Counted from the stretch's first letter, positions 9,970-64,000 are shown. The stretch: 64,000 nucleotides of DNA from Candidatus Poribacteria bacterium (GCA_965116925.1 OZ220744.1:3328001-3392000), one strand, 5' to 3'. Made by a program: numbers and translations. The notes: generated from the sequence alone by a model not told the origin.

Positions 9970-11949
9970 ATGTCAAACACCGATCAACTTACCGATCTAT
10001 TCACCGGAGTCTCCCAAACGATAAACGATACACGGACCTATCAAACCCGAAATGTCCACACAGTCTACACCTTTCCCGGCTATACCAAAGCCGAATGGAC
10101 GGCGAAAGCGGCGGAGCTTCGGGAACATATTTTGGTCAGCAACGGACTGACCCCGATGCCCGAAAAAACGCCGTTGAATGCCCATATCTTCGGACGGGTT
10201 GAACGCGAAGATTATACCGTCGAGAAGGTCTACTTTGAAGCCTATCCCGGTTTCTTCACAACCGGAAACCTCTACCGTCCAAAAGGGGTGAAAGGACCGT
10301 TTCCGGGAATTGTCAGTCCGCACGGACATTGGGGCAGAGGACGGTTAGAGAACAGCGAAGCCGGTTCAGTCCCCGGTCGTTGTATCAACTTTGCCAAGCA
10401 GGGCTACGTGATCTTTTCGTATGACATGGTCGGACGCTGCGACAGCGGGAAGCAGATTGATCATGCCTACGGCGGAGAACGCGAAGCACTCTGGGGCTTG
10501 AGTCTGATGGCACTCCAGTTGCGGAACGCGATTCGAGCTGTTGATTTCCTAGAGACGTTGCCCGATGTGGACAACGATCGAATTGGCTGCACCGGCGCAT
10601 CGGGTGGCGGAACACAAACGTTCATGCTCACGGCAGTCGATGACCGTATCAAAGTGTCCGCCCCGGTCAACATGATCTCCGCACACATGCAGGGCGGTTG
10701 CCTCTGTGAAAACGCACCGAACCTGCGACTGGACATCAGTAACATCGAAATCGGTGCGCTGATGGCACCCAAGCCGCTGTTACTCGTTTCTGCGACGGGG
10801 GATTGGACGAAGGATACGCCCAAAGTCGAGTATCCGGCGATTCGTAGTATCTACGCGCATTTCGACGCAGAGGATAAGGTACATGAGGTGCAGATCGACG
10901 CAGACCATAACTACAACAAAGACAGCCGTGAGGCGGTCTATGCTTGGTTCGGCAAATGGTTCTTAGGCGAAGAAGACGCAACAAAATTCAAAGAGGTGCC
11001 CTTTGAGGTAGAACGAGACGAAGCCTTGCTGGTCTTTCATAGCCGAGAACTGCCTGAGAGCGCGCTTGATGCCGAAGGACTCACCCGTTCATGGATCGAA
11101 AGTGCCGAAAAACAACTCGCAGCGCGTAAACCAACCGACGCAGCATCACTTGGGCGATTCCGTGAAGAGATGGGAGCCGCGCTCCGGCGTTCGCTCGCAA
11201 TCTCTACCCCCGACTCGACCCGCCCCAATCCCCTTGAAGTGGGCGATTTCACCGCGCAACCCTTTCTGATTGGAGGGAATAATCCGCTTCCCTCACTGTT
11301 CTTGACACCCAAAGCGGGGCAAGAGAACAGTTCGACCACACTGATTGTCCACCCGCAAGGAGCGATGAATCTAATCAACCCTGAAACTGGTGAACCGACG
11401 CGGTTGGTGGCGGATCTCCTCGCGGTTGGGGAGTCGATCTTAGGGGTAGATCCGTTTCTGACCGGCGCATACAGTGCCGCGGACGGAAAAGTGATACGGG
11501 ATACGAATGACCGATACTTTACCACCTACAACCGCACCGACGCCGCTCTCCGAGTTCAGGATATTGTGACTGCATTAACATATCTGAAATCGCAGATAGC
11601 TGTGTCAAACCTTAACTTGATTGGACTTGGGGAAGCGGGCTTATGGTGCCTCCTCGCTGCCGGGTTTGCCGATGTAGACCGTACCGTTATTGATGCTAAT
11701 GGATTCGACAGCGATAACGACGCAGCGTACCTCCGTACCCTGCCTATTCCGAGCATTCGGCGTGTCGGCGATTTTCGCACGGCAGGAACGCTTGTTGCAC
11801 CACGCCATCTACTTATCCACAATACTAGCACCACCTTTCAGACCAATTGGATCAAGGATGTGTATCGTGCCGTTGATGCCGCAGATCGGCTACGAGTGGA
11901 GAAGGAAGCGATATCAGAGGCAGATATCGCAGCATGGCTTACAGAATAA
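9970..11949 (+). CDS. Acetylxylan esterase-like alpha/beta hydrolase
   Basis: GCTGASGGGTQT nucleophile elbow, GGCLCEN, HNYN; second degenerate hydrolase domain; GGAG RBS before ATG 9970. Confidence 0.8.
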   Translation: MSNTDQLTDLFTGVSQTINDTRTYQTRNVHTVYTFPGYTKAEWTAKAAELREHILVSNGLTPMPEKTPLNAHIFGRVEREDYTVEKVYFEAYPGFFTTGNLYRPKGVKGPFPGIVSPHGHWGRGRLENSEAGSVPGRCINFAKQGYVIFSYDMVGRCDSGKQIDHAYGGEREALWGLSLMALQLRNAIRAVDFLETLPDVDNDRIGCTGASGGGTQTFMLTAVDDRIKVSAPVNMISAHMQGGCLCENAPNLRLDISNIEIGALMAPKPLLLVSATGDWTKDTPKVEYPAIRSIYAHFDAEDKVHEVQIDADHNYNKDSREAVYAWFGKWFLGEEDATKFKEVPFEVERDEALLVFHSRELPESALDAEGLTRSWIESAEKQLAARKPTDAASLGRFREEMGAALRRSLAISTPDSTRPNPLEVGDFTAQPFLIGGNNPLPSLFLTPKAGQENSSTTLIVHPQGAMNLINPETGEPTRLVADLLAVGESILGVDPFLTGAYSAADGKVIRDTNDRYFTTYNRTDAALRVQDIVTALTYLKSQIAVSNLNLIGLGEAGLWCLLAAGFADVDRTVIDANGFDSDNDAAYLRTLPIPSIRRVGDFRTAGTLVAPRHLLIHNTSTTFQTNWIKDVYRAVDAADRLRVEKEAISEADIAAWLTE

Positions 11950-48070: not shown

Positions 48071-48700
48071 AATTACTGTCCCCAACCTATCGTTTCACGT
48101 TTCACGCATCACGTTTCACTTTTGGTCTTTGACCAGAGTGGTCGCAAACTAGTGCTATCAGTTATAGTGAATAATAAAAATAAACAGACACTTTCGCTCC
48201 TCATCTAGTAGGCGCTGTTTCCAACTGCGCCGATTTGCAGTGTCTCAGTAATTCTAAAATCTACTATAAATAGACATTAAAAGTAGTAGGCACACTCCGT
48301 GTGCCGTAACTCCGCGAACAAAGTCCTGACCTCGCTCGTTTACGGTGTCTAATTATGGTGAATGATAAAAATAAATGGACACTTTCGCTTCCCATGTTTG
48401 GTAGGCGCTGTTTCCAACTGCGCCGATTTGCAGTGTCCAATTAATTCTAAAATCTACCATAATTCTGAAATCTACTATAAGTAGACATTAAAAGCAGATA
48501 GTTTTTCGTACCACAATCTGTTAGATTGTGATCCCAGCCTGCAAACTAACAGTTCGCGCTACTTATGGCAGATTGTCCTTTACATCGGAGGCGGGCACCG
48601 TGTGCCGTAACCCTGCCAACAAGTTTCTGACCGTACTCGTTCATAGTGTCCAATTGATTCTAAAATCTACTATAAATGTAAAGTAAACTCAATAAATCCC

Positions 48701-50317: not shown

Positions 50318-50896
50318 GTCCTTCATCGGTTCATTAATCTACCAATAATGCAATATGTGTCGATTCAAAAAACTCGACCTACAGATTATCTCGCAACTTG
50401 CGTTACTATAACGTAAGTTGCTAGTGGTATGCCTATTGCTCTGAATTCCAATTACAAGATTTCCTATCCCGTAACCGCCCTCTCGTAGCCACAGATTTCC
50501 TAATCTGTAATCTGCCCATACAGCCCGTACCCAATCTAACTAGGGAATGCTAATTTGCAATCACAGCATATAATTGGACACATGGGTTCGTAGTAGCGCA
50601 ATTCATTGCGCGTTACTTTTCGCTCAAGTCCGCGTGACAAATGGTGATTGCTCCCATTTCCATTGACTTGTGAGCACAGTTAAATCTGTAGGGATTGATG
50701 TTTTGCCTATAAGTAGCAACTTGCGTTACTATAGTGAATTTTAAAAATAAGCAGTCATTAAAAGTCGATAGTTTTTTGTACCACAATCTGTTAGATTGTG
50801 ATCCCAAGCCGCAAACTAACAGTTTGCGCTACAGTGTCTCATTAATTCTGAGATCCACTATAATTCTAAAATCTACCATTAGGAGGTAATTCCAAA

Positions 50897-51502
50897 ATGA
50901 ATCAACGCTTGGGCATCGTCCCTATAGTCGTGTTCCTTGCAGGTACATTTCTTGCGACTACTGTGCAGGGGTGCGGTCCCACTCCCTATGCTGCCGGAAA
51001 ACAACACTATGCAGCCGGCAATTATGATGAAGCGATCGCCGCCTATACCCAGGCGATAAAACGCCAGCCGGCGAATGCGAGGGCATATTTCGATCGGGGG
51101 TTAGCCTACTATGACAAGAAAGAGTATGACCGTGCGCTGAGCGATTATAACCGAGCGATAGAACTCCAGCTTGATGATGTAGAGGTTTATAAAATGCGTG
51201 CGTCTTTTTACCATGAAAGATCGGATTATGACCGTGCCATTGCGGACTATACGCAAGTGATAGCCCGGCAACCCGATGACGGCATGGTTTATTTTGGTCG
51301 CGGTATAGCCTACTACGACAAGAAAGAGTATGACCGTGCCATCGCAGATCTTACCCACGCGATTGAACTCAAGCCTGATTTTGCCACTGCTTATTCGATA
51401 CGCGGACTGGCTTACTTTGACAATGGCGATCCCGTCCGTGGTCAAAAAGACTTCGATAAAGCCGATGCGATTCAACACCCCCGGCAAGAAACGGACGATT
51501 AA
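50897..51502 (+). CDS. TPR-repeat lipoprotein
   Basis: Lipobox VQGC; about 5 TPRs (AYFDRGLAYY...YDRA..DY). Confidence 0.9.
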   Translation: MNQRLGIVPIVVFLAGTFLATTVQGCGPTPYAAGKQHYAAGNYDEAIAAYTQAIKRQPANARAYFDRGLAYYDKKEYDRALSDYNRAIELQLDDVEVYKMRASFYHERSDYDRAIADYTQVIARQPDDGMVYFGRGIAYYDKKEYDRAIADLTHAIELKPDFATAYSIRGLAYFDNGDPVRGQKDFDKADAIQHPRQETDD

Positions 51503-51576
51503 TTGCAATAACGTTTTATGAGGCTTGAGTCAATATGAAATGGCAGTCAACTAAGATGAAAGGAGACTCAAATAAA

Positions 51577-52191
51577 ATGGCATACATCTTCGTTGTTATC
51601 GGGGTAATCTTGGTGCTGGTTGTTGCTTGGTTTTTAGTGGGTTGTATTCGAGTGCCGTCCACGTATGTAATTGATATTGATAAATTGCTGGACACTGAGC
51701 CGGAGATGTGCGATCAGCAGTTGACGAAAATAGCGGGCTGTCGGTTGTCCCATACAGATTACCGGCAGGAAGGGATCGACGATGCAAAGGGCACGACCGG
51801 CGATATTGCCACCATGACGTATGAGAAAGTTCGTGGCATTGTTAATAAATCCGGGAGTTACCCACGCATCGAGATCGGCTTCAATGCGGAGCAGCATTCC
51901 GAAAATATCACTGTGTACTTTGGCGAGTATGTTGACAGAATGGAAGCACTCCGGCGGGTGGGGTTTGAGGAGAAGGATCTTTTTGACTCAGGCTACGCAC
52001 CGTATAGACTGGAAACCTACACTCAGAAAAGCATCTACCTAATCTATGAAAACGCGGATTTTGCTGGCGGGATCTTTGCAGCACCATCCGTCGAGTGGAA
52101 AAAGCGCTACTGGATAAGTTGGGAGCAATTCGATGATGGCAGAACTACAGGGATAAACGTCCGTTTGTGGACTGGTACACCAGCCCGTTAG
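51577..52191 (+). CDS. Hypothetical membrane-anchored protein or lipoprotein
   Basis: AAGGAG upstream; hydrophobic N-terminus ending LVGC. Confidence 0.65.
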   Translation: MAYIFVVIGVILVLVVAWFLVGCIRVPSTYVIDIDKLLDTEPEMCDQQLTKIAGCRLSHTDYRQEGIDDAKGTTGDIATMTYEKVRGIVNKSGSYPRIEIGFNAEQHSENITVYFGEYVDRMEALRRVGFEEKDLFDSGYAPYRLETYTQKSIYLIYENADFAGGIFAAPSVEWKKRYWISWEQFDDGRTTGINVRLWTGTPAR

Positions 52192-52228
52192 ACAGACCCC
52201 GCGCTAAAGTTTATAAAATAAGGAGGCG

Positions 52229-53803
52229 TTGATGGGAAAAATAGAGCCGATTGAGGACGTTGGCCGCAGACAAGAAATACGGCAAATTTATAAACGCCTT
52301 ATTAAGTCAATCAATCCTCTGGAGGTCTTGTTTCAGCCAGAAATTGAAGGGTGTATTATGTTTTATCCTTTTGTCGATGGTGCTAGGCTGGAAAAAGGTC
52401 AATATGAGGCTGTCACCGCGGCTGCAAAACTTTTAGGCGATGAAGGTTTTGTCCTGTCACAACTCTATGGTGATTCCGGGCATCGTAAGATCTCTCCTGA
52501 TTTTGAATACAAAGGATTTCCTCCGACAGATGACGATTGGGTTGAGATAGATGGAGAAACGGTTTCCGAGCCGCATTGGTGTGAATTTCCAACGTATAAA
52601 GATTACGGTGCCGTGGGATATGTTCCCCTACTCGACCATGTGCTTTACTCTATTAATGGTTCTTGGGCGGTCGTCTGTGCGTATGAAGAACATGCCCTTG
52701 TCGGTGGTTCCATTGACTTTATCAGAGCTGTTGACCAAATATATCCACAATGGCGAATTAGCATACTAAAAATGATTGATAATTTAAGCAGAATAGCGAC
52801 AAGAGAATGGCCGCAGGTTAAACTGCTGTTTGAACTGATTCAATACTGGAAAACGTATCCCGCAGATGCGTGGGTCGAGACGGTCACGGACAAGTTGAAT
52901 CGCAAATTGGACGGACGGAGTGAAATTCGTTACGCTAATGGCGCCCGCCCTCAGCAAGTGCCGATGGGAAAAATAGAGTCGATTGAGGACGTTGACCGCA
53001 GACAAGAAATAGCGAAAATTGGGCAAAGCCTTTTTCAGTCGCAAAATCCTCATAAGATGACTTTTAAGCCAGAGGTTGAGGCGTGTCTTATGTTTCATAC
53101 CCTTGATGCTGACGATCCTTATTATCCCAATTCTCCGCTTGACTATCTGACAAGGGATCAATACCAAGCAATCATCGCGGCTGCAAAACGGGCGCGTGAT
53201 ACCGGGTTTGTCCTGTCCGATCCCCACGGTAGCTTGATGAATGACACCGATTATTGGCGGCGTACAATCGCTCCTGGGGCTGCCGCAGACACAAATTGGG
53301 CGGATCTGGAGCATCACTGGTGGTGTGAATTCCCGACCTATGAAGATTACCTTACAATCGGACCGGTCGGCATACTGGACGTTGCCCTGTTTTCTATTCA
53401 CGGACACTGGGGCGTTTTCACTTCAACTGGAGGGTATACCGTTGTAGGTGGGAATATAGATTTTATTCGTCATGTAGACAAAATGTATCCCGCATGGCGA
53501 AACGAAGTGATGGAACGGATTGATAATTGGGAAGGACAGATCAAAAGAGATGATCCGAGGGTTAATCTGTTGATTGAACTACTCGAATACTGGAAACGGT
53601 ATCCCGCAGATGAGTGGGTCGAGACAGTCGCTGACAAGTTGAGTCGCAAATTGGAATATAGGGTCGCCCCTTTTTTCCGTGCATTTTATTTAACTGTGTC
53701 GCACGGTCTCTTAATCTTGACCGAGCAGAACTTTGTAGAATCTTTTCGTGGCTTGATGTGGTCCAAATCTATTGTCTCCTTTTTTCCCCGGTGCGACAAA
53801 TAG
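52229..53803 (+). CDS. Hypothetical protein made of two tandem homologous domains
   Basis: MGKIEPIEDVGRRQEI vs MGKIESIEDVDRRQEI; WCEFPTY twice; YWK.YPAD.WVETV.DKL.RKL twice. Confidence 0.75.
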   Translation: MMGKIEPIEDVGRRQEIRQIYKRLIKSINPLEVLFQPEIEGCIMFYPFVDGARLEKGQYEAVTAAAKLLGDEGFVLSQLYGDSGHRKISPDFEYKGFPPTDDDWVEIDGETVSEPHWCEFPTYKDYGAVGYVPLLDHVLYSINGSWAVVCAYEEHALVGGSIDFIRAVDQIYPQWRISILKMIDNLSRIATREWPQVKLLFELIQYWKTYPADAWVETVTDKLNRKLDGRSEIRYANGARPQQVPMGKIESIEDVDRRQEIAKIGQSLFQSQNPHKMTFKPEVEACLMFHTLDADDPYYPNSPLDYLTRDQYQAIIAAAKRARDTGFVLSDPHGSLMNDTDYWRRTIAPGAAADTNWADLEHHWWCEFPTYEDYLTIGPVGILDVALFSIHGHWGVFTSTGGYTVVGGNIDFIRHVDKMYPAWRNEVMERIDNWEGQIKRDDPRVNLLIELLEYWKRYPADEWVETVADKLSRKLEYRVAPFFRAFYLTVSHGLLILTEQNFVESFRGLMWSKSIVSFFPRCDK

Positions 53804-53893
53804 AAAGATCACCCCCACGATAAACAGCCCCAGAAACAGCCAATAGAAAGAACCGATACGAGTGGGTATAAAAGCGTTAAAATCAGAACTCAA
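53711..53893 (-). pseudogene. Possible 3' remnant of a DUF805-like membrane gene cut by a MITE
   Basis: Hydrophobic helix then PGKKGDNRFGP, similar to the DUF805 C-terminal G..G.NR(Y/F)GP motif; 5' side abuts the MITE at 53895. Confidence 0.4.
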
Positions 53894-53894
53894 T

Positions 53895-54071
53895 CTAGTA
53901 CATTGTCAGATAAATGTAGAGCAAACTGTTAGTTTGCGGACTCGGATCACAATCTAACAGATTGTGGTACAAAAGCCTCTGTTAGATACTTCCCCCCACA
54001 AAGCGGCTTGGCTATGGCTATCCAAGCCGAGCGGTGAGTGCCTTATCATGATTTATTTGACGGAGCACTAG
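53895..54071. mobile_element. CTAG-bounded MITE (about 177 bp); inverted copy at 60127-60302
   Basis: ctagtacattgtcagataaat ... atttatttgacggagcactag; the reverse complement matches 60127-60302 along its length. Confidence 0.85.
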
Positions 54072-54199
54072 TGTTTTTATGTAATGATGCGTTTAAAAAT
54101 AAAAACAACACTAAAGGTAGGAGCGGAGGATTTGATTCAGATCAGGAAATTAGAGACACATCAACCGACAACGTAATGTCGAGATAAATGGAGGTCAAA

Positions 54200-56569
54200 A
54201 TGCAAAACCGTAGACGGTCGTTCTTTTTGATGGGTATTATTATCTTTTTGGTGGTGGGTGCGCTTGAAGCGTATGTAGTGCGTCACTTTGAAGGGACAGA
54301 CGACACTCTGGATATCTTTATCCTCCGACTTGGTGATGAGCATGATCGTCAAGAAGCGATTGCGGCGATCAAAAGGTTGGATGTGCCTGATGACAAGATA
54401 GTGTTAGCGTGGGCGAATCTTGCGAGGTTATTAATTAAGAGTCGAATAATGGAGGAAGGGTCTGATCAACTCAGCCATTGGGAGCAAACGACAGATGCAG
54501 TTTTTGGGTTAATAGACGTTGATAAGGCATTGGCGGGATTGCTACATTTGTCGGAAAGTGGCAACAGAGATGAATCAATCCTTGCGCGGTATGCTATCAA
54601 GGTGATTACCGATAGACTGAGGAACGCTGCTGTGGAACCGGTTCCCGGCACGGTTTCACACTTTGAAGGCACCGGCGAAACTCTGGATAGCTTTATTCTC
54701 CGACTTGGTAGTGACCATGAGCATGTTCGTCAAGAAGCGATTGCGGCGATCGAAAGACTAGATGTGCCTGATGACAAGATAGTGTTGGCGTGGGCGAATC
54801 TTACGAGGTTATTAGGTAGAGGCGGGCTGCTCCCTTATCTCCGTTGGGAGCAGATAGATGGAGTTTTAGGTTTAATAGACCTTAATAAGGCATTGGCGGG
54901 ATTGCTAGATTCGTTGAAAGGTGACAACAGAGATGAATCAATCCTTGCGCGGTTTGCTATCAAGGAGATCGCCTTTGGACTGAGGAACGCTACTCTGGAA
55001 CCGCCCCCCGGCACGGTTCCGTTGCTCGTCGAGGCACTCCAAGATGAAGACGTGCATATCCGTGAAATTGTGTCTCACCTCTTAGCGGATATACCGAGCC
55101 ACGCTTTAGCGAACATACCGAGCGAGGCTAAAGCCGCTGTGCCGAAATTAATCCATGTACTGACCGATGAAAGTGAAGATGTCCGATCCGCTATTGTTTA
55201 CGCATTAGGAAATATTGCTGTCGCGACGCCGGGGGTTCAGCTTAAAATTACCGAGAAATTGATCGAAGTGCTGAACGCTCCCAACTTTGTTATCTACGGG
55301 CATCGCCAGGACAGCAACTTTCATGTCCGAGTGGCGGAGCACCTTGCATCTATTGGTCCTGCGGCGGTGCCATCGTTACTCAAGGCTCTGAACGCGACAG
55401 ACGCTGGCGTACGGCATCATGCGGCAATTGCTTTGGCAAAAATGGATTCCCAAACCGCTGAAGTGACCATGCCGATCCTCATTCAAGCATTGGCATCTCC
55501 CCATCCTTATACACGGTGGACAGCTGTCTACGCGCTGGTGAAGATGGCAAGGCAGCCGACGCGCGTTAATCAGATTGTACAAGCCCTCGGGCAGGTGTTA
55601 GCCGGACCTGAAGATACGGTTGAAAATCGGGTTGCCCGACCCGAGGCAGCTTACACATTAAGAGGGATTGCAGTTGAGATTCCAGCGGTTCAGCTTGAAA
55701 TTACTGAGAAACTGATTGCAGCACTCCACACGCCCAACTTTGTGTCGGGGCATTTCGGTGACGACCGTAGCGATCTGAGCAATTTTCACGTTGACGTGGC
55801 GAACAGACTTGCGTCTATACGGTCTACTGCGGTGCCATCATTACTCAAGGCTTTGAACGCAGCAGATGCTGGCGTGCGGCATCATGCGGCAATTGCATTG
55901 GCACACATCCATTCCCAAACCGATGAAAAGATCATTCCGATCATTCCGATACTGACCGAAGCATTAGCGTCGCCATATCTTCATACGCGGGCAGCTGCTG
56001 TCGCCGCATTAACAAGATTGGGAGAGCGACCAACGCTTGTTGGTCAGATTGCGCCAATTTTTGTGAAGGTGTTGGAAACTACGATAGATACGGAACCGAT
56101 ATATTACGATTTGACGTTTCATGACATCGTTGCAGATGCCTTGGTTTCCATAGATCTATCAGAAACAATCAAGGTGCTTCGGTCTGAAAACCCTTATGTG
56201 CAGGGACCCGTCGTTGCTGCTATCGCGCCGAAGAACGGTCCGGCGGTGGACGAGGCGGTGCCGATAGTCATCGAACTGTTATGTAGTGATAATAGATATG
56301 TCCGTCAAGCAGCAGCTGAAACCCTAATTCAGTTGCGCCAATTTTCGACCGATGATTTGATTGCCGCCCTCACCGACGAAAACGGATGTATTCGCACACG
56401 GGCAGCGATAGTTCTCGTTGAAATGGGACCGCAGGCGATGGCTGTGCTAGCAGCGACACTGCCAAATCAATCACCAGAGACCAATCGGCAAATCATAGAA
56501 ATCCTTGAAACAGTTGCGACGCCAGCAGTTCGGAAGGCGATTTCTGCCCTCCAACGCTCTGGGCAGTAA
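54200..56569 (+). CDS. Membrane-anchored HEAT-repeat protein with internal duplications
   Basis: N-terminal TM; duplicated HFEGT..LD.FILRLG...WANL block; HEAT-like AVPSLLKAL...VRHHAAIALA repeats. Confidence 0.88.
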   Translation: MQNRRRSFFLMGIIIFLVVGALEAYVVRHFEGTDDTLDIFILRLGDEHDRQEAIAAIKRLDVPDDKIVLAWANLARLLIKSRIMEEGSDQLSHWEQTTDAVFGLIDVDKALAGLLHLSESGNRDESILARYAIKVITDRLRNAAVEPVPGTVSHFEGTGETLDSFILRLGSDHEHVRQEAIAAIERLDVPDDKIVLAWANLTRLLGRGGLLPYLRWEQIDGVLGLIDLNKALAGLLDSLKGDNRDESILARFAIKEIAFGLRNATLEPPPGTVPLLVEALQDEDVHIREIVSHLLADIPSHALANIPSEAKAAVPKLIHVLTDESEDVRSAIVYALGNIAVATPGVQLKITEKLIEVLNAPNFVIYGHRQDSNFHVRVAEHLASIGPAAVPSLLKALNATDAGVRHHAAIALAKMDSQTAEVTMPILIQALASPHPYTRWTAVYALVKMARQPTRVNQIVQALGQVLAGPEDTVENRVARPEAAYTLRGIAVEIPAVQLEITEKLIAALHTPNFVSGHFGDDRSDLSNFHVDVANRLASIRSTAVPSLLKALNAADAGVRHHAAIALAHIHSQTDEKIIPIIPILTEALASPYLHTRAAAVAALTRLGERPTLVGQIAPIFVKVLETTIDTEPIYYDLTFHDIVADALVSIDLSETIKVLRSENPYVQGPVVAAIAPKNGPAVDEAVPIVIELLCSDNRYVRQAAAETLIQLRQFSTDDLIAALTDENGCIRTRAAIVLVEMGPQAMAVLAATLPNQSPETNRQIIEILETVATPAVRKAISALQRSGQ

Positions 56570-56744
56570 CATCGTCTTAACCGATGATAACCAGAACGTC
56601 CTGGTCCGCTATGAATATGAAGTTTTTGGCGCAATACGCAACCAAACAGGCACAAGCGATAACACCCGCAAGTTCACCGGCAAGGAATGGGACGCCGGTA
56701 GCAACCTATACATACTACGCCGCTCGACAGTACGACCCATACAT
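56552..56744 (+). pseudogene. Rhs repeat-associated core fragment (frameshifted)
   Basis: NALGSNIVLTDDNQNVLVRYEYEVFGAIRNQTGTSDNTRKFTGKEWDAGSNLY, frameshift, YYAARQYDPYI: matches Rhs core xLGS...Y.Y..FG...FTGKE.D..S.LYY..AR.YDP. Confidence 0.9.
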
Positions 56745-56758
56745 CAAGGAGAAATACA

Positions 56759-57430
56759 ATGAAAAATTGTCAAATAACCTGCACCCTCGTGTTGTTGATG
56801 TTGATAGTGTTGATAACAGCCTGTGGTGACGAGCAGGTTGACGACGATGATGTTGTCTATGACTTTTGCCCAGAGGGCGATTCGGAGGGCGAATTAAGTT
56901 CCATTGAAATAGGATTACTGAAAGCACTAGAAGCAGATAGGTGTGCCAAGATCACAAGAACCGACTTGGCGAATATAACTCATCTTGATGCATCTGTGGA
57001 AGGTTTTGTTGGTGCTTGGGGCGGCGTGGACATAGAGTTGTTGCAGTATTGTATCAACCTCCAAGTGTTGGATCTGAGTGGTATCCAGCTTAGTCGCTTC
57101 TGGGTACTAGATAAACTAAAGTCTCTACAGGAATTATACCTGCAAGACAACTTCATCTCTGACATCGACTCCCTCGGTGTTGTGCCCCAGCTCCGAAGAC
57201 TAAATCTTGCATCTAACCGCATCTGCGACATCTTTCCGCTTCAACAGTTGGTTCAGCTAGAGTACCTTAATCTCGTCGAAAACAAGGTTACGGATATAGA
57301 GCCGTTAGTAAATAATGTTGGGTTGTCTCAGGGGGACATTGTAATACTGGAAGATAATCCGTTGAGTGAGGTTTCGGTTGAACAACACATTCCCGCCCTA
57401 GAGGCACGAGGGGTCATTGTGAAGTGGTGA
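56759..57430 (+). CDS. Leucine-rich-repeat (internalin-like) lipoprotein
   Basis: Lipobox ITAC; LxxLxLxxNxIxDI repeats; C-terminal NPLSE...IPALEARGV. Confidence 0.9.
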   Translation: MKNCQITCTLVLLMLIVLITACGDEQVDDDDVVYDFCPEGDSEGELSSIEIGLLKALEADRCAKITRTDLANITHLDASVEGFVGAWGGVDIELLQYCINLQVLDLSGIQLSRFWVLDKLKSLQELYLQDNFISDIDSLGVVPQLRRLNLASNRICDIFPLQQLVQLEYLNLVENKVTDIEPLVNNVGLSQGDIVILEDNPLSEVSVEQHIPALEARGVIVKW

Positions 57431-57631
57431 GCCTCCTCTTCTTATCTGACACACAATTATGGTAGATTCTAAGATCCACTATAGATATGATGACCTTCCA
57501 CGACAAATGCCCTGGGATGAAGCACCAACAATGTTACAGCATTTCGGTCCTTTGCTCAATAATTTACACGATCCAATCAAAGAACTTCCGTTGGGAGCTA
57601 TTAAAGCGGGAATCGAATAATCGAAAGGTAA

Positions 57632-58399
57632 TTGACAATGAACTTAGTTAGGAACTGGAGGCAGATGAGTCTATATCCGTTACATATTTCTTCAATTGCA
57701 CTCCTCCTGCTCATAATCGCAAGCTGTGCAGAAACAGATGATAAAACAGTAAAGATTCAAGAGACAACAGATAACGACATGCTGCAGGTGACGGAAATCC
57801 ATATGCTGCAGGTGACGGAAATCCAGCCAGAACCTGGCACCTGGATTGGACCAGAAGAACAATTCACGGTTCGGTTTAGTACGCCAATTGTGCCTAATTC
57901 AGGCAATATCACATTCGGCGATTGGTCATTCAAACTCCCATATACCGAACCATCTGCCACAATTACGTGGAATAGATGTTTTACCCGATCTATACCATTT
58001 GACGAGCAGGTCACTTTAACGGTAAGTGGTTTTGAAGATGTTGACGGCAGCATACAAGCTGAACCATTTCAAGCATCTTTCCACCAAGCTGGTGTAGACA
58101 TTGCTCCCCCCGAAATTGTAACGTATCAGCCAATGGGTGACAAAGTAGATCCTGCGATCACAAGGGCAATTCGTGTGACGCTTAACCGTCCAGTGGCGCC
58201 AATCAATTTTGAGATTTCCCCGCATATAAATGGCACAATTCAAATCGCTAACGATGAGATTCAGTGCACAAGTATAGTCATTTACCATTTCATGGCTGAC
58301 GAGCAATTACAGGCTGATACGGAGTATCATATTGTATTACCTCTTGTCGATATAGTCGGCAATCAAATCACACACGATTTTCGCTTTGCGACACAATAA
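57632..58399 (+). CDS. Lipoprotein with Ig-like (Big_5-type) domains; start uncertain
   Basis: Lipobox IASC; VRFSTPI, LQADTEYHI...DIVGN...FRFAT; 24-bp tandem duplication (MLQVTEI twice). Confidence 0.7.
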   Translation: MTMNLVRNWRQMSLYPLHISSIALLLLIIASCAETDDKTVKIQETTDNDMLQVTEIHMLQVTEIQPEPGTWIGPEEQFTVRFSTPIVPNSGNITFGDWSFKLPYTEPSATITWNRCFTRSIPFDEQVTLTVSGFEDVDGSIQAEPFQASFHQAGVDIAPPEIVTYQPMGDKVDPAITRAIRVTLNRPVAPINFEISPHINGTIQIANDEIQCTSIVIYHFMADEQLQADTEYHIVLPLVDIVGNQITHDFRFATQ

Positions 58400-58570
58400 T
58401 AATCCGGGGGTTATTGCCGTGAATAACCAATGGTGCTAGTTTGCAGCTGTTGATAACGTAAAACGTGATGCGTGCAACGTAAAAATCATTGGTCCAGCGA
58501 TTCATTTAGCCCCAGTTGCTCTGAATCCCGATATTTCTTAACATGAGCCAGAACAGTAAGGAGGCATTCG

Positions 58571-59344
58571 ATGCGTTATAGGAGATTGAAATTGAGATTC
58601 GTGATTCTCTGTTGGTGTCTATTTCTGCTGATTGGCTGTCAGGGGGATTCGGGTGTCGAGATGCCTGTCGTTGACGAGATGCCTGTCAACGAAATCGAAC
58701 CGAAACCGACACAGCTTCTCGGATTCTCCCGATTTAGCCTGCTTCAACATCTGGCATTGGGGTTTAAGGACCCTGTGCTGAAGGTCAGTGTAGCTCTTGA
58801 GACAGAACGCCGGGGGGTGAGCCCCACCATTGATGCCATCCCCGCGTCCGTGCCCCCTGTCAAGCAGTGGAAAGTCCTGCGTAAGGATTTGCAGGTGGCT
58901 GCGAGCTATCTGGGACTATACCCCTACTACCGCAAACTCACCCCCCAACCCCTTAATTTAATCGTTTTTTATGAGGACGCCGTTGGCGTCCATCAACGAG
59001 TCATTCGCACGCAGACAGACCACATAAACGTAGATAGATTCCAGTTACACATCATCGCATCCTCCGTCGGTGATGGCAAAAACGTGTCCGTTGAACCGCT
59101 GAATCGGGACGGCATCCGTATCGACTTCACCGATCCGGTGATTGGTCAGGTTAGCATCAGACCCCTTGGTGGCGAGCCTCTCAATTGGATTTCCAAAGTG
59201 GAGGGGCAGACTGCGCTTTTGATTCCCCAAGCAGGCGAGGAGCTTGTTGGTGGAACCGTCTACATCATTACGATTAATGTTGAGACAAGTGGCGGAGTCA
59301 CTTTGGAACCAAATTGTAATCAAATCATATTTATTACAGCGTAG
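58571..59344 (+). CDS. Lipoprotein with C-terminal Ig-like domain
   Basis: AAGGAGG RBS; lipobox LIGC; IRIDFTDPV...LVGGTVYIIT...F.T. Confidence 0.7.
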   Translation: MRYRRLKLRFVILCWCLFLLIGCQGDSGVEMPVVDEMPVNEIEPKPTQLLGFSRFSLLQHLALGFKDPVLKVSVALETERRGVSPTIDAIPASVPPVKQWKVLRKDLQVAASYLGLYPYYRKLTPQPLNLIVFYEDAVGVHQRVIRTQTDHINVDRFQLHIIASSVGDGKNVSVEPLNRDGIRIDFTDPVIGQVSIRPLGGEPLNWISKVEGQTALLIPQAGEELVGGTVYIITINVETSGGVTLEPNCNQIIFITA

Positions 59345-59504
59345 CCCGTATTGAAGGCGGTAAAAGTAATGTCAAAGAAACCTCTCCCATTATCGAGCAA
59401 GGAGTCGCAAGATGCGGGAGTAAATTGTAGGTCGAGATTCACATCTCGACAAAACACCCGGACTCTACGGAGAGTCGCAAGATGCAGGAGTAGGAGGAAG
59501 ACTG

Positions 59505-60035
59505 ATGGTTCGTCAAAAAATTGGAATTTTGCTGTTAATCTGTCTCTTTTTGCTTTTTATCAAACAAGAGATAGCTGCTGAGACAGATTCAAGCCAAAAG
59601 GATGGAGCATTCGTCATCGCAGGTCAAATAGGCGGTGGGTTTCTCGCACAAGGTACTGGCAGCTTGATTGGTGTAACCCTCGTCTTTCCTTTTCTTATGA
59701 TGCTAGACGAACCAGAAGGCGCGGTATTGCCCTTCTTCTGGTTCGGCATAGGAACAGGCGGCATATTTGGATGCGCTGGTGGTGTTTATGCAGTTGGGGA
59801 GATATTTGGTAGCGGAGGTGGCTCTTTTAAGGAAACCTTAAAATGGTCATTATTGACGCCTATCGGTGCCACAATCGGCTATCAACGGTCAAAGCGGAAG
59901 CAGCCGCCCAGCGTTTCATTGGCTAACGGTAAATTCACACTCCACTTGCCAGCGGTGAGTATACAAAGTTCACGGCTCCCCTATCATCAGCCCCAAACGG
60001 ATTACATGGTACGGTTGGTCAATGTTAGATTTTAG
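59505..60035 (+). CDS. Secreted or membrane Gly-rich hypothetical protein
   Basis: Signal peptide, Gly-rich hydrophobic helices, terminal Phe. Confidence 0.65.
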   Translation: MVRQKIGILLLICLFLLFIKQEIAAETDSSQKDGAFVIAGQIGGGFLAQGTGSLIGVTLVFPFLMMLDEPEGAVLPFFWFGIGTGGIFGCAGGVYAVGEIFGSGGGSFKETLKWSLLTPIGATIGYQRSKRKQPPSVSLANGKFTLHLPAVSIQSSRLPYHQPQTDYMVRLVNVRF

Positions 60036-60354
60036 AATGTGCGATGTATGCTGTTGAGGTATAGAGAGGTTCCAAATGAAATGGATGAATGACTTTAACA
60101 TTTCGGCAGCGATTTTCAAAGCGATTGTAGTGCTCTATCAAATAAATCATGATAAGGCACTCACCGCTCGGCTTGGATAGCCATAGCCAAGCCGCTTTGT
60201 GGGGGAAGTGTCTAAAGGAGCCTTTTGTACCACAATCTGTTAGATTGTGATCCGAGCTCGCAAACTAACAGTTTGCGCTACATTTATCTGACAATGTAAT
60301 AGTCAAGTCGGTGACTTTGGAATTGGAGGTAACTCGGAAAAGGGAAGTGATTCT

Positions 60355-60786
60355 ATGGTATTGATAAAGAGACTGTTTGTTATTTTGGTCTTGATAGCAG
60401 GGCAAGGGTGTTATATCGAAGAAGAAATTTATCTTCAGACTGAGCTTCCGCCTAAGTATCTCCCTGTTTTTTTGATAAGCAGGGATGAGAATTTTCAGAG
60501 CCCCGGTGCGATAACCTATCTGCGGGTATATGTTCGCGGGGACGAGCCGTTGGAGGATAGAATATATTGGGATATTTCGGTGCCTTTAACGGGACCGCGT
60601 CACCGTGGATTTGGGAAACGAACACCCATGGAGGTCTCAAGAATCACTTACGGCATTCCACCATACTGGGAATTTGAGGAGGAGACCCCACCTCGAAAGC
60701 TGGAGCGCGGTGTTGAATATTGCGTTACAATATGGGGGCATGGTGCGTCTGAAAATCCAATTGACTGTTTTATCTATCGCCCTTAA
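60355..60786 (+). CDS. Lipoprotein, paralog 1 of a tandem pair
   Basis: Lipobox GQGC; shares LRVYVRGD...DR.YW and GVEYCVTI.GH...CFIY.P with the next gene. Confidence 0.75.
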   Translation: MVLIKRLFVILVLIAGQGCYIEEEIYLQTELPPKYLPVFLISRDENFQSPGAITYLRVYVRGDEPLEDRIYWDISVPLTGPRHRGFGKRTPMEVSRITYGIPPYWEFEEETPPRKLERGVEYCVTIWGHGASENPIDCFIYRP

Positions 60787-60810
60787 TCCGTGTAAAAGGG
60801 AACAGCTGAA

Positions 60811-61236
60811 ATGGTATCGATAAAAAGACTGCTCGCTGTTTTGGTCTTGATAGCCGTTCAAGGCTGTAGTGAAGAAAATTATCTTCAGGTCGCGCTTCAC
60901 CCTGACTATCTCCCTATTTTTTGGGTGAGCGAGGATGAGGATTTTCAGTCCTACGGTTTTATAACCTCTCTGCGGGTATACGTTCGCGGTGATGGTTCGA
61001 TAGCTGATAGAACATATTGGTATATTGAGGTGCCATACAGTGGACCGCATGACCCTCCTGGGAGTCGCACACAAACCCCCGTGAAACTCTCAAGAGTTAT
61101 TTACAGCGTTGTACCACAAGGATTTAACCAGAAGATCTCCGCTCGACCGCTGGAGCCTGGGGTTGAATATTGCGTCACAATACGGGGGCACCCAACCACG
61201 GAAGATCTGGTTGAGTGTTTTATCTATGAACCGTAA
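60811..61236 (+). CDS. Lipoprotein, paralog 2 of a tandem pair
   Basis: Lipobox VQGC; homologous to 60355-60786. Confidence 0.75.
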   Translation: MVSIKRLLAVLVLIAVQGCSEENYLQVALHPDYLPIFWVSEDEDFQSYGFITSLRVYVRGDGSIADRTYWYIEVPYSGPHDPPGSRTQTPVKLSRVIYSVVPQGFNQKISARPLEPGVEYCVTIRGHPTTEDLVECFIYEP

Positions 61237-61260
61237 TCCAAAGTATTTCTAACAATCAAA

Positions 61261-61302
61261 GGCAAGCCGCAGAGACGCTTGGACTTGTGGCTTGCCTTTT
61301 TT
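61261..61302 (+). terminator. Rho-independent terminator
   Basis: ggcaagccgca...tgtggcttgcc stem followed by tttttt. Confidence 0.7.
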
Positions 61303-61330
61303 GGTTGTGGTAGGCGTGTCGCCCCTACAT

Positions 61331-61522
61331 CAACGCTTTGGGGGGTAACATCGTCTTAACCGATGGCAACCAGAACGTCCTTTAGCGAATTGGAGGATCT
61401 TGCCACCTCGAAAGGCTGGACAAAATCACAATCGTGTGCGGGGCCAAAAATACGCCGTGATAAGAATGGCACCAAGCGACTCAAAACAGGGTAGCCCGCA
61501 AACTCTTGGCAATCACACGCCT
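61331..61522 (+). pseudogene. Rhs-core fragment joined to a decayed toxin C-terminal tip
   Basis: 61331-61381 repeats the 56552 fragment; then FSELEDLATSKGWTKSQSCAGPKIRRDKNG...GNHTP with a stop and frame change. Confidence 0.7.
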
Positions 61523-61587
61523 TGCAGTGGGATTTATAGTGAATTCTAAGATCTGCCATAGATTGACTTAAAAAAGACATAAAGAGG

Positions 61588-61968
61588 ATGGAGCAGATGA
61601 AACAGTACTACGAATTCCATAGCCTTGAGCATGTTTATCTAGAAGATAGTTGGGTACTTGATATTCAAACTGAACCTGACTCCGTGGAAATAATCCTTGA
61701 GACAGTTCTCACGGCAAATCATCCGCAGTATAGTGCCCCGCTGCCGAATGAGCAATACTGCTATCGAAACGGGCGAATCCGCTTTCAAAATGCGAAGAGT
61801 GTCACTTGGGTCAATAAGAGTATGATTCCTAATCTCGAGCCGGGGAGTCCACCTGACTATGGAAATATAGACGTATTTTACTTCTCTGAAGGTAGCTACC
61901 ACCTGATTGGAGAGTGGGGAGAGTTAGAGATTGTCTCATGCGAACCGCTGTTTGAATTGGTCGAATAA
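61588..61968 (+). CDS. Putative polymorphic-toxin immunity protein
   Basis: YLEDSWVL...HPQY..P.PNEQYCY..G.I.F...D.G.ID....G.WG pattern, which I recall downstream of toxin genes; follows the toxin-tip relic. Confidence 0.6.
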   Translation: MEQMKQYYEFHSLEHVYLEDSWVLDIQTEPDSVEIILETVLTANHPQYSAPLPNEQYCYRNGRIRFQNAKSVTWVNKSMIPNLEPGSPPDYGNIDVFYFSEGSYHLIGEWGELEIVSCEPLFELVE

Positions 61969-62012
61969 CACGAAACAGGTCGCTAATCACTTTGAGCCTC
62001 CCCGTCGTTTAG

Positions 62013-62103
62013 CACACCAATGCTTTGGGGGGTAACATCGTCTTAACCGATGACAACCAGAACCCCTCGTCCGGTATGAGTACGGTGTCTGCGGCGCTAT
62101 CCG
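62013..62103 (+). pseudogene. Third Rhs-core fragment
   Basis: cacaccaatgctttggggggtaacatcgtcttaaccgatgacaaccagaac...gtccggtatgagtacggtgtc (HTNALGGNIVLTDDNQN...RYEY). Confidence 0.85.
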
Positions 62104-62198
62104 ACAACGAGCACAACCCTGACCGCCTCTAAAAATTTTACACCATTGCCCTATGATCTCAAGAAGTTACCCATACCAAATCAAGATGGAGGATAAAA

Positions 62199-63266
62199 AT
62201 GGACAAACCGCATAGATGCCGTCTGTCTCAAATCCATGTGATAATTTTCCTGATCAGTTGCTTCATTTTAAGTGGGTGTGAAAAACGCTCCGATTGGGCG
62301 GATAAAGATGTAAATTTCCTGATTACCCAACTCAAAAGTAACCGATCCGACGGTAAACGGGGTTGGGCGGCTTACTGGTTGAGAAAAAAGACTGAGAAAC
62401 GAGATAAAGTGATACCCGCATTGACACAAGCGTTATTAAACGATGAGAATCGACGGGTTCGAGTAAGGGCGGTTTGGGCGTTAGGAGACATGAAACCGCC
62501 GGCTGTCTCTGCCATTCCTGCAATGATGGAGGCGTTGCAACACGAAGATACGGGCTGGCTAGAGCCGACAGCGAGTGAAGAGTGGGATCTTCACTGGGAG
62601 GTGGTCAAAGCATTGGGCGACATGGGAACCGAGGCGATACCCGCATTGATACAGGTTTTGCATAGTGACCTGAAGATTTGGCGCAACGCGGGCGTGGAAA
62701 TCTGCCAAATTGACCCTTCTATGCAAGACACTGTCATCGAGGCGATTGTTGGAAAACTGAGTCATGAAGACGGGGATATCCGCTCAAGCGCAATCTATGC
62801 ATTACAGAAGATTGACGAGTTGGCTCTACAGGAGATTGATGACTCGTTTCTGATCTCCATTTTTATTAAAGCGTTTAATGACCCGCACGCCGAGGTTCGC
62901 TGGAGAGCCATCAATGCGTTACAGAAATTTAATGATGTGTCTCTGGTTCCTGTTTTTGCCAAAGCGTTGAGCGACCCGGACCGTAACATCCGCAAACGTG
63001 CGATTGATGCTTTAGAAGAGATCGAACCGGCGGCGACAAAAGCCGCGGTGCCGGCGTTGATAGTAGCACTCAACGATGAATATCCTAGGGTTCGTCGTCA
63101 AGCGGCTAGAGCGTTAGGGAAGATTGGAGACCCTGCCGCTGTACCAATGCTGATAGAGAACTTGACTCATCAGGATCAATGGGTCCGCGAAGCGACGATT
63201 GACGCACTCAAAAAGATTGGCACCCCAGAAGCCCTGAAAGCCGTTCAGGAATTTGATAGCAAATAA
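62199..63266 (+). CDS. HEAT-repeat lipoprotein
   Basis: Lipobox LSGC; repeated VR..A..ALG and AVPALI.ALND HEAT units. Confidence 0.9.
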   Translation: MDKPHRCRLSQIHVIIFLISCFILSGCEKRSDWADKDVNFLITQLKSNRSDGKRGWAAYWLRKKTEKRDKVIPALTQALLNDENRRVRVRAVWALGDMKPPAVSAIPAMMEALQHEDTGWLEPTASEEWDLHWEVVKALGDMGTEAIPALIQVLHSDLKIWRNAGVEICQIDPSMQDTVIEAIVGKLSHEDGDIRSSAIYALQKIDELALQEIDDSFLISIFIKAFNDPHAEVRWRAINALQKFNDVSLVPVFAKALSDPDRNIRKRAIDALEEIEPAATKAAVPALIVALNDEYPRVRRQAARALGKIGDPAAVPMLIENLTHQDQWVREATIDALKKIGTPEALKAVQEFDSK

Positions 63267-63546
63267 CAGGATTGAGACAACCCCCGCTGTGCCCTTAATT
63301 CCTGAAAGACTTTATACCGCTTTTATTGGGGACAACTCAAAACGGTCGGCGGGGCTTGTGTTGTTTATCATCCGCTCATCTGACACCGGTAGCCCTATAA
63401 AATTGGAATATAGTATCGACCCTATTCATTATCACGGTGTTCGCATCATAAATAATCGAGGGGGAACAGACCAATGAAGTACGCTATCGTTTATGTCATC
63501 TGTATTATTTGTTTAATTGGAGTGGGTGTGTTAATGTGGCGCGTAG

Positions 63547-63763
63547 CTAGTACTCAGTCATATAAGTTTTGGAATTATTATATATGTTATCGTTTGCTTT
63601 CAATCAGGGCTCATGTAGAAAGTGCAAAGCACGAAAATAAATTGTAGGGGCGGGGTCTCCCCGCCCTTATTTGCCAGTGCGGGGGTCGGGTGACCCGACC
63701 CCTACGAAGTATTATGAGTCTCGATCCATATAGACAATCATAATTTGCCTGACAATGTACTAG
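63547..63763. mobile_element. CTAG-bounded MITE interrupting a short membrane-protein ORF that starts at 63474
   Basis: ctagtactcagtcatataagttt ... tgacaatgtactag, inverted relative to 12255-12373. Confidence 0.75.
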
Positions 63764-63788
63764 ACCTACCCCCCATTCAGAAAGGGGA

Positions 63789-64000
63789 TTGACAATAACG
63801 CTTCAGACGCTAGTCGAAAGCTGGAAAACGTCAGGAGCGTATAATAGCGTAGTGGACCCAGCGACCAAAGCAGACGTTAAAAAAGCGGAGACGACAATCG
63901 GCGCACAACTACCGACTTCATTGCGTGAAGCCTATCAGTTATTCGATGGAGGTTGGATGTGGGATTTAGATTTTTATCAACTTGACTTCAATGAACACGG
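63789..64000 (+). CDS. SMI1/KNR4 (SUKH) family immunity protein, 5' part only (absent from ORF track)
   Basis: Manual translation from TTG 63789: LTITLQTLVESWKTSGAYNSVVDPATKADVKKAETTIGAQLPTSLREAYQLFDGG; PAT...V...E..IG..LP..L..Y...DG is the SUKH signature. Confidence 0.8.
   Translation, partial: MTITLQTLVESWKTSGAYNSVVDPATKADVKKAETTIGAQLPTSLREAYQLFDGGWMWDLDFYQLDFNEH

Follow-up and report, generated by a model that had tools for sequence, protein, structure and literature searches.

An array of exported LRR, HEAT and Ig-like proteins in Candidatus Poribacteria as a probable polyimmunity set left by Rhs cassettes

Polyimmunity loci are tandem, co-oriented and strain-variable strings of immunity genes of unrelated folds, SUKH genes among them (Zhang et al. 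2012, PMC3482391; here and below, statements about a cited paper refer to parts of it). The same survey lists leucine-rich repeats (LRR) and HEAT repeats as immunity proteins, places nearly all immunity proteins in the cytoplasm and names one lipoprotein family, Imm65; it states that no Ig or propeller folds had come to light, and it gives no immunity for Tox-MPTase1-5. Related loci are the Rhs orphan tips of enterobacteria, which form strings of core fragment, tip and downstream gene (PMC2935791), and the orphan immunity arrays of the Vibrio type VI secretion system (T6SS), in which old immunity genes are kept after effector loss (PMC5361080). Here we describe a gene array in Candidatus Poribacteria, lying partly in a window of 64,000 nucleotides (the whole stretch of DNA that was analysed), that resembles all three. 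Unlike surveyed polyimmunity loci, its partner proteins are mostly exported, and Ig/FN3-like and propeller partners occur in the system; unlike the enterobacterial and Vibrio cases, it stands in a genome without a parent Rhs. The array probably represents a variable polyimmunity set that remained after the toxin halves of Rhs cassettes were deleted, with exported partners that would block envelope-acting tips of competing Poribacteria. On this sequence-based reading, the exported LRR, HEAT and Ig-like proteins are likely antitoxins against rivals and not host-contact proteins.

The source genome (G000) is one contig of 6.47 Mb, in which the window occupies G000:C1:3328001-3392000. From position 50897 to the window end there are 13 open reading frames (ORFs), all co-oriented on the plus strand, and the array runs about 6.6 kb further, to G000:C1:3398608 (about 70,600 in window numbering), stopping at hisF. 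The whole comprises 20 plus-strand genes in tandem with short spacing, including two SUKH genes; the part beyond the window, to 70608, holds a fourth Rhs core relic, two HEAT genes, two FN3-like lipoproteins, the second SUKH gene and two small genes. Eight lipoboxes (VQGC, LVGC, ITAC, IASC, LIGC, GQGC, VQGC and LSGC) were found in the array proteins. Pfam matches were obtained for tetratricopeptide repeats (TPR; gene 50897), HEAT (54188 and 62199), LRR (56759), Big_5 (57632, E 7e-6) and SUKH (63789), while seven window proteins and most tips matched no Pfam or NCBIfam family. Sequence and Pfam thus bear out the gene count, lipoboxes, domain labels and terminal SUKH gene given in a preliminary description of this DNA.

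The parent system was found in relatives. An Rhs core is present in 23 of 176 genomes of the phylum, including 14 of 28 in the same family and 1 of 112 in the largest other family. Intact Rhs genes, which the preliminary description had proposed to look for, encode about 1,610-1,710 aa and occur in G007, G018, G023, G027, G051 and G055. From an N-terminus that resembles a signal peptide, these proteins run through DUF6531, RHS repeats and a LamG insert to a swappable tip; cores that end in DPxG motifs followed by a variable tip were found in 38 frames in relatives and at a second G000 locus. One tip on the same scaffold is a barnase-type RNase followed by a barstar gene, which identifies the tip position as a toxin position. 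The VipB, PAAR, sheath and GPD/VgrG families were not found in five genomes (G000 and four Rhs-bearing ones) with positive controls, and export of Rhs by Sec is inferred from this. The system is in this respect like the bacterial teneurin-like proteins, YD-shell toxins of Sec type that carry variable tips and are followed by a cognate gene (PMC13018210), which have a different N-terminal architecture and for which the parts of the paper covered mention neither orphan arrays nor metallopeptidase tips. A metagenome scan gave 64 loci, nearly all of them distant Rhs proteins (4 inspected).

A shorter form also occurs in the relatives. Mini-Rhs genes consist of a signal peptide, the last ~38 core residues with both DPxG motifs, and a tip, without the Rhs shell; they carry several tip families, each followed by its usual partner, and were seen in G008, G023 and G027 and in 13 database proteins (L056:11703-12566; L046:6987-7826 and 10713-11540; L052:6813-7643; L044:11392-12192; proteins P0002-P0004, P0009, P0248, P0252, P0275 and P0280). 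Upstream of intact Rhs, an exported protein of 375-420 aa is encoded in four genomes (L042:18145-19299, L044:18480-19751, L049:2403-3605 and L053:332-1459), without a Pfam match in the G018 copy scanned, and in G004 and G007 a different 250-aa protein precedes Rhs. A possible role of these preceding proteins is as accessories for export or anchoring.

Tip and partner were compared over a set built by motif search, in which 33 of 38 core ends had a tip of at least 130 aa and a next gene within 260 nt; the statistics omit the five frames with tips <130 aa and a G051 AHH-like tip missed by the motif. These 33 tips comprise 27 HExxH, 2 lipocone-like and 4 nuclease-type tips (one RNase, two PT-TG and one assigned by resemblance). 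The preliminary description had asked whether homologs of the array genes sit directly downstream of Rhs tips, and homologs of 8 of the 13 window genes are indeed the next gene behind a tip in relatives (identities in Table 1). The LRR ortholog stands 11 nt behind an intact 1611-aa Rhs in G018; that of HEAT gene 54188 abuts an intact 1658-aa Rhs in G007; and that of HEAT gene 62199 lies 2 nt behind the G004 Rhs, with 38-39% homologs behind both G027 F tips, so that the gaps between tips and LRR or HEAT genes in G018, G007 and G004 are 0-11 nt. Orthologs of 59505 and 58571 follow an orphan tip (at 161 nt) and a truncated tip of G007, the ortholog of 60355 lies 22 nt behind an orphan tip of G008, and a 32-35% homolog of 57632 follows an intact G023 Rhs. 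Homologs of 52229 (40-47%), whose product has no export signal by the rule given below, stand directly after a G057 tip and as second gene after a G055 PT-TG tip.

Across the 33 cassettes, tip similarity and partner similarity correlate with r 0.82, a value reached in 0/5000 free and 0/5000 within-genome shuffles; on 485 cross-genome pairs r is 0.80, while sharing a genome gives 0.15. The pairing is kept on full Rhs, orphan, mini-Rhs and stand-alone tips (C tips 7/8, D tips 6/6, F tips 3/3), and because the partner follows the tip and not the Rhs scaffold, immunity is favoured over cargo. Export was judged by a hydrophobicity rule together with the lipobox pattern. An exported partner follows 29/29 HExxH or lipocone-like tips (lipobox in 18/29) versus 0/4 nuclease-type tips, and the repeat-type partners all have a lipobox or a hydrophobic N-terminus, none being placed in the cytoplasm. 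Among database matches, 7 of 13 for the B tip sit on contigs sized like those of one of 36 LRR matches. E, F, G, L and M tips were not found elsewhere in G000, so several array partners have no toxin of their own to serve; judged by these sequence comparisons, they would guard against the toxins of others.

Remains of the lost toxin halves are visible in the window. As previously described, it contains three mutually homologous Rhs core fragments, which show 87-91% protein identity to intact Rhs cores and from which the DPxG motifs of the core end are deleted. Against the RHS core model TIGR03696, relic 4, just past the window, scores 41.7 bits, over the cut-off, and relic 1 alone scores 16.9 bits, under it; taken with the identity to intact cores, the check proposed earlier comes out in favour of the relics being Rhs cores. 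Of the four short ORF tails described earlier, three are true ends of tips. The 54159-54187 stump shares its final 7 residues with P0248, the 57453-57620 stump matches the end of P0161, a core-plus-tip protein, with E 2e-16, and the 62108-62196 stump matches the end of a G004 tip. All three are ends of the tip families expected for the next gene, which favours the immunity reading. The fourth tail, at 63253-63477, was rejected as a toxin tip, being 94% identical to a whole partner gene of the 67650 family in G005. A toxin-tip relic had also been described; a broken frame does stand at 61387-61527, but it matched no Pfam family and is at most a possible tip remnant.

Contigs from two public runs, which come from two studies and of which one run may be the source sample, equal 56646-57452 letter for letter; the relic 1-LRR junction is thus not an assembly error, and an artefact at relic 1 was ruled out. 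Three partner genes of the array are broken (60076, 63269 and 67439). An Rhs N-terminal part was found neither in G000 nor at the G005 or G018 version of the site, and no intact Rhs was found at the array site. One other Rhs piece exists in G000, a gene that has lost its 5' part but keeps a complete HExxH tip, directly behind which lies an Ig-like lipoprotein gene. The proposal that toxin halves were deleted and partners retained is accordingly supported by core and tip stumps beside whole partners, although no intact parent Rhs lies upstream of the orphan modules and there is no sign that one ever stood here. Measured against a polyimmunity locus free of intervening toxin genes or cassettes, the picture is mixed: intact tips are absent, and four core relics and three stumps of tips stand among the array genes, a further difference from the surveyed loci.

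The partial cores tend to begin at one place. In enterobacteria, core fragments vary in length (PMC2935791), whereas here the 60 partial-core rows (about 56 distinct) include 22 that start -12 to +6 nt from one codon, that is, within 18 nt, and 2 that start at +7 to +60. A terminator-like hairpin stands 24-29 nt upstream at 13 of the 23 junctions, and the remaining 10 lie in five other contexts. A near-identical start base with a small inverted repeat at the junction was seen at 56553, 61327 and 62013 of the window and at 20 places in relatives, and no recombinase common to partial-core loci was seen. The near-fixed start could reflect one ancestral junction copied by homologous recombination, or may reflect a site-specific step. 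In G004 and G008, four relics carry a member of one dispersed-repeat family at the same place in the core, and in G002 an Rhs core relic is fused onto the 3' end of a homolog of the TPR gene.

Table 1 Coordinates of array genes, core relics and tip remnants in window numbering
Feature	Position	Strand	Basis or remark
TPR lipoprotein, 201 aa	50897..51502	+	Pfam TPR
Lipoprotein without known family, 218 aa	51535..52191	+	no Pfam/NCBIfam match
Two fused copies of the cytoplasmic partner family of nuclease-type (non-HExxH) tips	52229..53803	+	internal repeat
Last codons of E-type HExxH tip	54159..54187	+	82% DNA across G007 tip end/gene start
Exported HEAT-repeat protein, 793 aa, E-type tip partner	54188..56569	+	79% ortholog abutting intact G007 Rhs
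Rhs core relic 1	56553-56745	+	frameshift near 56712; stops before autoprotease motif
LRR lipoprotein, 223 aa, partner of B-type HExxH tip	56759..57430	+	85% ortholog behind G018 Rhs
C-terminal 55 codons of A-type HExxH tip	57453..57620	+	58% over 55 aa to P0161 end
Big_5 (Ig-like) lipoprotein, partner of A-type tip	57632..58399	+	Pfam Big_5; homolog behind G023 Rhs
Ig-like lipoprotein, L-type tip partner	58571..59344	+	78% ortholog behind truncated G007 tip
Exported glycine-rich hydrophobic protein, G-type HExxH tip partner	59505..60035	+	81% ortholog behind G007 orphan tip
5' remnant of further 60355-family gene, cut by dispersed repeat	60076..60135	+	68-74% to N-termini, G004 and G008
Lipoprotein, predicted FN3/Ig-like sandwich, K-type HExxH tip partner	60355..60786	+	79% ortholog behind G008 orphan tip
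Tandem paralog of 60355	60811..61236	+	76% DNA repeat; tandem pair also in G005, G008
Rhs core relic 2, terminator-like hairpin upstream	61327-61381	+	homology to other relics
Broken frame, possibly tip remnant	61387..61527	+	93% DNA to G005
Small cytoplasmic all-orphan protein, immunity-like	61588..61968	+	homologs in Rhs-relic settings
Rhs core relic 3	62013-62110	+	homology to other relics
Last codons of F-type (lipocone-like) tip	62108..62196	+	84% DNA to G004 tip end
HEAT-repeat lipoprotein, 355 aa, F-type tip partner	62199..63266	+	67% ortholog behind G004 Rhs
3' remnant of 67650-family partner gene	63269..63477	+	94% to whole G005 gene
SUKH immunity gene, 237 aa, stop at 64502	63789..64000 (window end)	+	PF09346 E 1e-10

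Structure models were made for the B tip, the sole tip modelled, and for the 67650 family. The B-tip model (predicted local distance difference test, pLDDT, 93) matched best the effector domain of VgrG2b (6h56; Z 10.0, root-mean-square deviation 3.1, 128 aligned residues, 25%), with the next match at Z 6.5, and the B-tip sequence profile matched VgrG2b with E 6.5e-5. H75, E76, H79 and E112 are nearly invariant among B tips and correspond to HExxH plus a downstream Glu, a thermolysin-like core. VgrG2b-Cter, a zinc gluzincin, exerts its toxicity in the periplasm, and its PA0261-family immunity protein resides in the envelope, as a lipoprotein in some genera (PMC6899460). The B tip thus shares with it the HExxH motif and third Glu, the predicted fold and a probable envelope-located immunity, and a best match to a periplasmic toxin of this kind favours the immunity reading. 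The differences lie in the setting: VgrG2b-type domains occur on VgrG, PAAR or T6SS cargo in proteobacteria (PMC6899460), whereas here they are the tips of signal-peptide Rhs, in genomes where T6SS markers were not found (five covered), with LRR, HEAT, Ig-like or propeller partners.

F tips may belong to the lipocone polymorphic toxins, which act on lipids and have immunity proteins that are all membrane proteins or lipoproteins (PMC12419801); their profile matches to lipocone families are weak and all under cut-off (DUF4056 E 0.003-0.2, DUF2279 E 0.03-0.14, YfiM E 0.027). No HEAT-repeat type is among the lipocone immunity types described in the parts of that paper covered, its supplements lying outside this scope. 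Where other tips matched eCIS_core/DUF4157 or lipocone families, the matches were weak. The 67650-family model gave middling FN3/Ig-like matches (Z 6.0-7.7), so its fold label is a prediction, and Foldseek gave no match at E<=0.001 for either model. The 60355 and 67650 families match by profile at 96% with pairwise BLAST negative, and 58571 matches the other Big_5-like partners by profile at 98%.

The site varies among relatives. The array is flanked by a thiamine-enzyme gene and by hisF. In 16 of 19 congeneric genomes <400 nt separate these two genes; in one genome they are unlinked, and the distance is 4.6 kb in G018 and 28.5 kb in G005. The site in G005, the nearest of these genomes, carries mostly the same families in reshuffled order, with B-tip remnants upstream of both its LRR genes, and the G018 site carries four of these families. 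In 2 of 3 public runs, from two studies, the unchanged relic-LRR junction occurs together with a joint 56711 -> 57619 that skips the LRR gene; this joint was found in contigs at likeness 90, which makes a sister strain its likely source. Array content thus differs between genomes and within read sets, as a comparison suggested earlier was meant to reveal. Synonymous divergence (dS) to G005 is 0.06-0.33 for ten array orthologs (median 0.15) and 0.29-0.32 for four flanking genes, the lower median of the array pointing to recent exchange. The ratio of nonsynonymous to synonymous divergence (dN/dS) is 0.21-0.98 over 26 pairs of array genes, mostly 0.2-0.7 and <0.75 in 23 of 26, and 0.02-0.17 for the flanks. 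By these ratios the array genes are under weak constraint.

The mechanism that we propose runs as follows. Rhs would be exported by Sec and would cleave off its own tip, and the freed tip would damage the envelope of a neighbour, as VgrG2b does. A partner anchored in the periplasm or outer membrane would bind and inhibit the tip. Cassettes would spread by recombination within the conserved core, and deletion of core and tip would leave protection in place while the weapon is lost. The presence of two SUKH genes mixed into the array likewise favours the immunity reading. The preliminary description had suggested that the LRR and HEAT lipoproteins may be cassette cargo or immunity proteins instead of host-interaction factors; this is supported, with immunity favoured over cargo.

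Several points weigh against this interpretation. Toxicity and neutralisation are, for every pair, predictions from comparison. Because kin inherit whole cassettes and are not independent, the correlation of tips and partners measures fixed pairing, not binding or co-evolution. Rhs-borne B tips (n=7) pair with LRR proteins in four cases, propellers in two and a small Ig-like protein in one, and the search for cognate tips came up empty for the TPR gene, 51535 and 61588, the first and last of which have dN/dS of 0.79-0.98. The export call derives from a hydrophobicity rule and lipobox pattern (18/29) and not from a trained predictor, and the nuclease-type cassettes in that count number four, one classed by resemblance only. 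No T6SS markers were found in five genomes that could account for the passage of a tip into a rival's periplasm, and VgrG2b is also reported to be active on eukaryotic cells (PMC6899460).

An unlikely alternative takes the partners for cassette cargo instead of antitoxins: they would assist secreted feeding or matrix-remodelling peptidases as accessory subunits, be it as surface anchor, chaperone or substrate adaptor. Export and fixed pairing would suit any obligatory partner, mini-Rhs and stand-alone tips lack the Rhs shell, no injection machine was found in the five genomes, and DUF4157-like domains, proposed to serve in toxin loading or maturation as processing domains (PMC8213781), count for this alternative as they count against antitoxins. 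A subunit would, however, be useless without its enzyme, yet the partners are whole beside broken cores and tips, with five tip families not found in G000. On one and the same scaffold, HExxH tips are exchanged for an RNase-barstar pair; they also occur mixed with SUKH genes, and the fold closest to the B tip belongs to a known periplasmic toxin. Slightly less likely is the view that the partners were once immunity proteins and that the array is now neutral debris of a dying Rhs locus, giving no present protection. The three broken partner genes, the interrupting dispersed repeats and dN/dS far above that of the flanking genes agree with decay, as does a single promoter/terminator pattern scan without clear signal (34 promoter-like sites versus 22 expected; 9 terminator-like versus 13 expected); among the public runs checked, no RNA run was listed as holding the array. 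Every core and tip piece is broken, yet the 13 window genes are whole, dN/dS stays <0.75 in nearly all pairs, and the same site gained a reshuffled, related 28-kb array in G005 and a four-gene subset in G018.

It is very unlikely that the LRR, HEAT, TPR and Ig-like lipoproteins are host-interaction surface proteins hitch-hiking on Rhs recombination. Poribacteria are mainly sponge symbionts and are rich in eukaryote-like proteins with the same TPR, LRR and Ig-like domains and with signal peptides, which have been read as host-interaction factors in a paper that never uses the word 'toxin' (PMC3909097). Of 27 LRR-profile matches in G000, 21 lie far from tips or relics and six, of a short lipoprotein type, lie near them, and the TPR gene lacks a cognate tip. 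The distant LRR proteins are, though, mostly of a different, large type (19/21 at least 500 aa), while 8/8 FN3-like matches in G000 are near tips or relics. Hitch-hiking also leaves unexplained why one partner family goes with each tip family across genera and scaffolds, and 16 of 19 congeners have no array at this site. The reinterpretation as antitoxins is limited to these subfamilies and does not extend to all Poribacteria repeat proteins.

Further observations concern individual array genes. Among 29 genomes (E<=1e-55, 110 candidates scored per genome), the TPR gene has an ortholog in G005 only. Homologs of 51535 occur in 4 of 71 genomes, one copy inside another Rhs-relic array; those of 61588, which has a weak Atlas lead to Imm50 (score 0.86), occur in 5 of 71, every one at the same site or in Rhs-relic arrays. 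Dispersed repeats, with at most about 130 genome copies, break the array at 48477-48562, 50747-50832, 53895-54070, 60128-60302 and 63650-63760. At 63474-63789 a repeat stands between a short hydrophobic frame and the SUKH gene; in G005 (L075:4870-5685) this frame is fused to SUKH, a joined form also seen in run X2, and the fusion may be a chance chimera or a membrane-anchored SUKH.

Related loci lie elsewhere in G000 and its relatives. A second hot spot beside the kbl gene (G000:C1:3010610-3012699, L212; L042; L060) holds an intact Rhs array in G018, a relic array in G002 and, in G000, a D tip that stands alone with its HEAT+Ig partner. Further arrays (G000:C1:3462870-3481901 and 3522749-3532355, L213), made up of stand-alone HExxH tips that lack a signal peptide, with Ig-like, LRR and FN3-like lipoprotein partners and some tip paralogs without HExxH, flank a prophage-like block at 3484000-3522300, and the G004/G007 Rhs locus lies in or beside the same block. 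At L071:3801-17400 and G000:C1:5924003-5927493, A-type tips are fused to Ig/PKD-like repeats and face convergent Ig-like lipoprotein genes; the fusions share a basic N-terminal leader without a hydrophobic stretch, possibly a further export route. In the more distant G067 (L202:2589-10018), behind an Rhs with an Amidase_6 tip (E 1e-28) come genes for membrane-anchored, HEAT and lipoprotein products as well as a remnant with HExxH, and in G051 (L055:9907-18809) an Rhs with an AHH-like tip is followed by five tandem cytoplasmic paralogs with a weak Gmx_para_CXXCG match.

The link of LRR and HEAT proteins to Rhs cassettes had been put forward as undescribed. This appears to hold for Poribacteria: in literature that covered few subscription papers, we found no description of Rhs or immunity genes in the phylum, nor of exported LRR, HEAT, Ig/FN3-like or propeller partners of T6SS-free Rhs there, although such loci might be found in the supplements of PMC3482391 and PMC12419801. 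As a kind of link it has precedents, since LRR and HEAT immunity is already listed by Zhang et al. 2012 (PMC3482391), and exported immunity against envelope-acting toxins is already known as well (PMC6899460; PMC12419801). What is new is the lineage, an injection-free Rhs whose tips are mostly metallopeptidases, and the exported LRR, HEAT, Ig/FN3-like and propeller partners.

A broader picture, which we regard as evenly balanced between right and wrong, is that Poribacteria of this family fight their kin by injection-free Rhs, including shell-less mini-toxins, that carry mostly envelope metallopeptidases. LRR, HEAT, Ig, FN3 and propeller lipoproteins would have been recruited repeatedly as specific periplasmic inhibitors and stocked in swappable arrays built at a fixed junction, making part of the eukaryote-like repertoire antibacterial defence. 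The named cognate pairs, such as the G018 tip and its LRR protein, supply candidate partners for a class of Rhs metallopeptidase tips to which the 2012 survey had assigned no immunity, and the LRR, HEAT and Ig-like scaffolds are candidate natural gluzincin inhibitors. In sponge symbionts, the number of LRR, TPR and Ig-like domains is widely taken to indicate host interaction. Here a one-to-one tie to toxin-like tips is seen for the short LRR lipoproteins (6 of the 27 LRR matches in G000), for some HEAT proteins and for two Ig-like families; this suggests a different, directly testable job for them and points to kin competition within dense symbiont communities. If the broader picture is true, a defined share of the eukaryote-like proteins in a major sponge symbiont would be antibacterial defence and not host dialogue.

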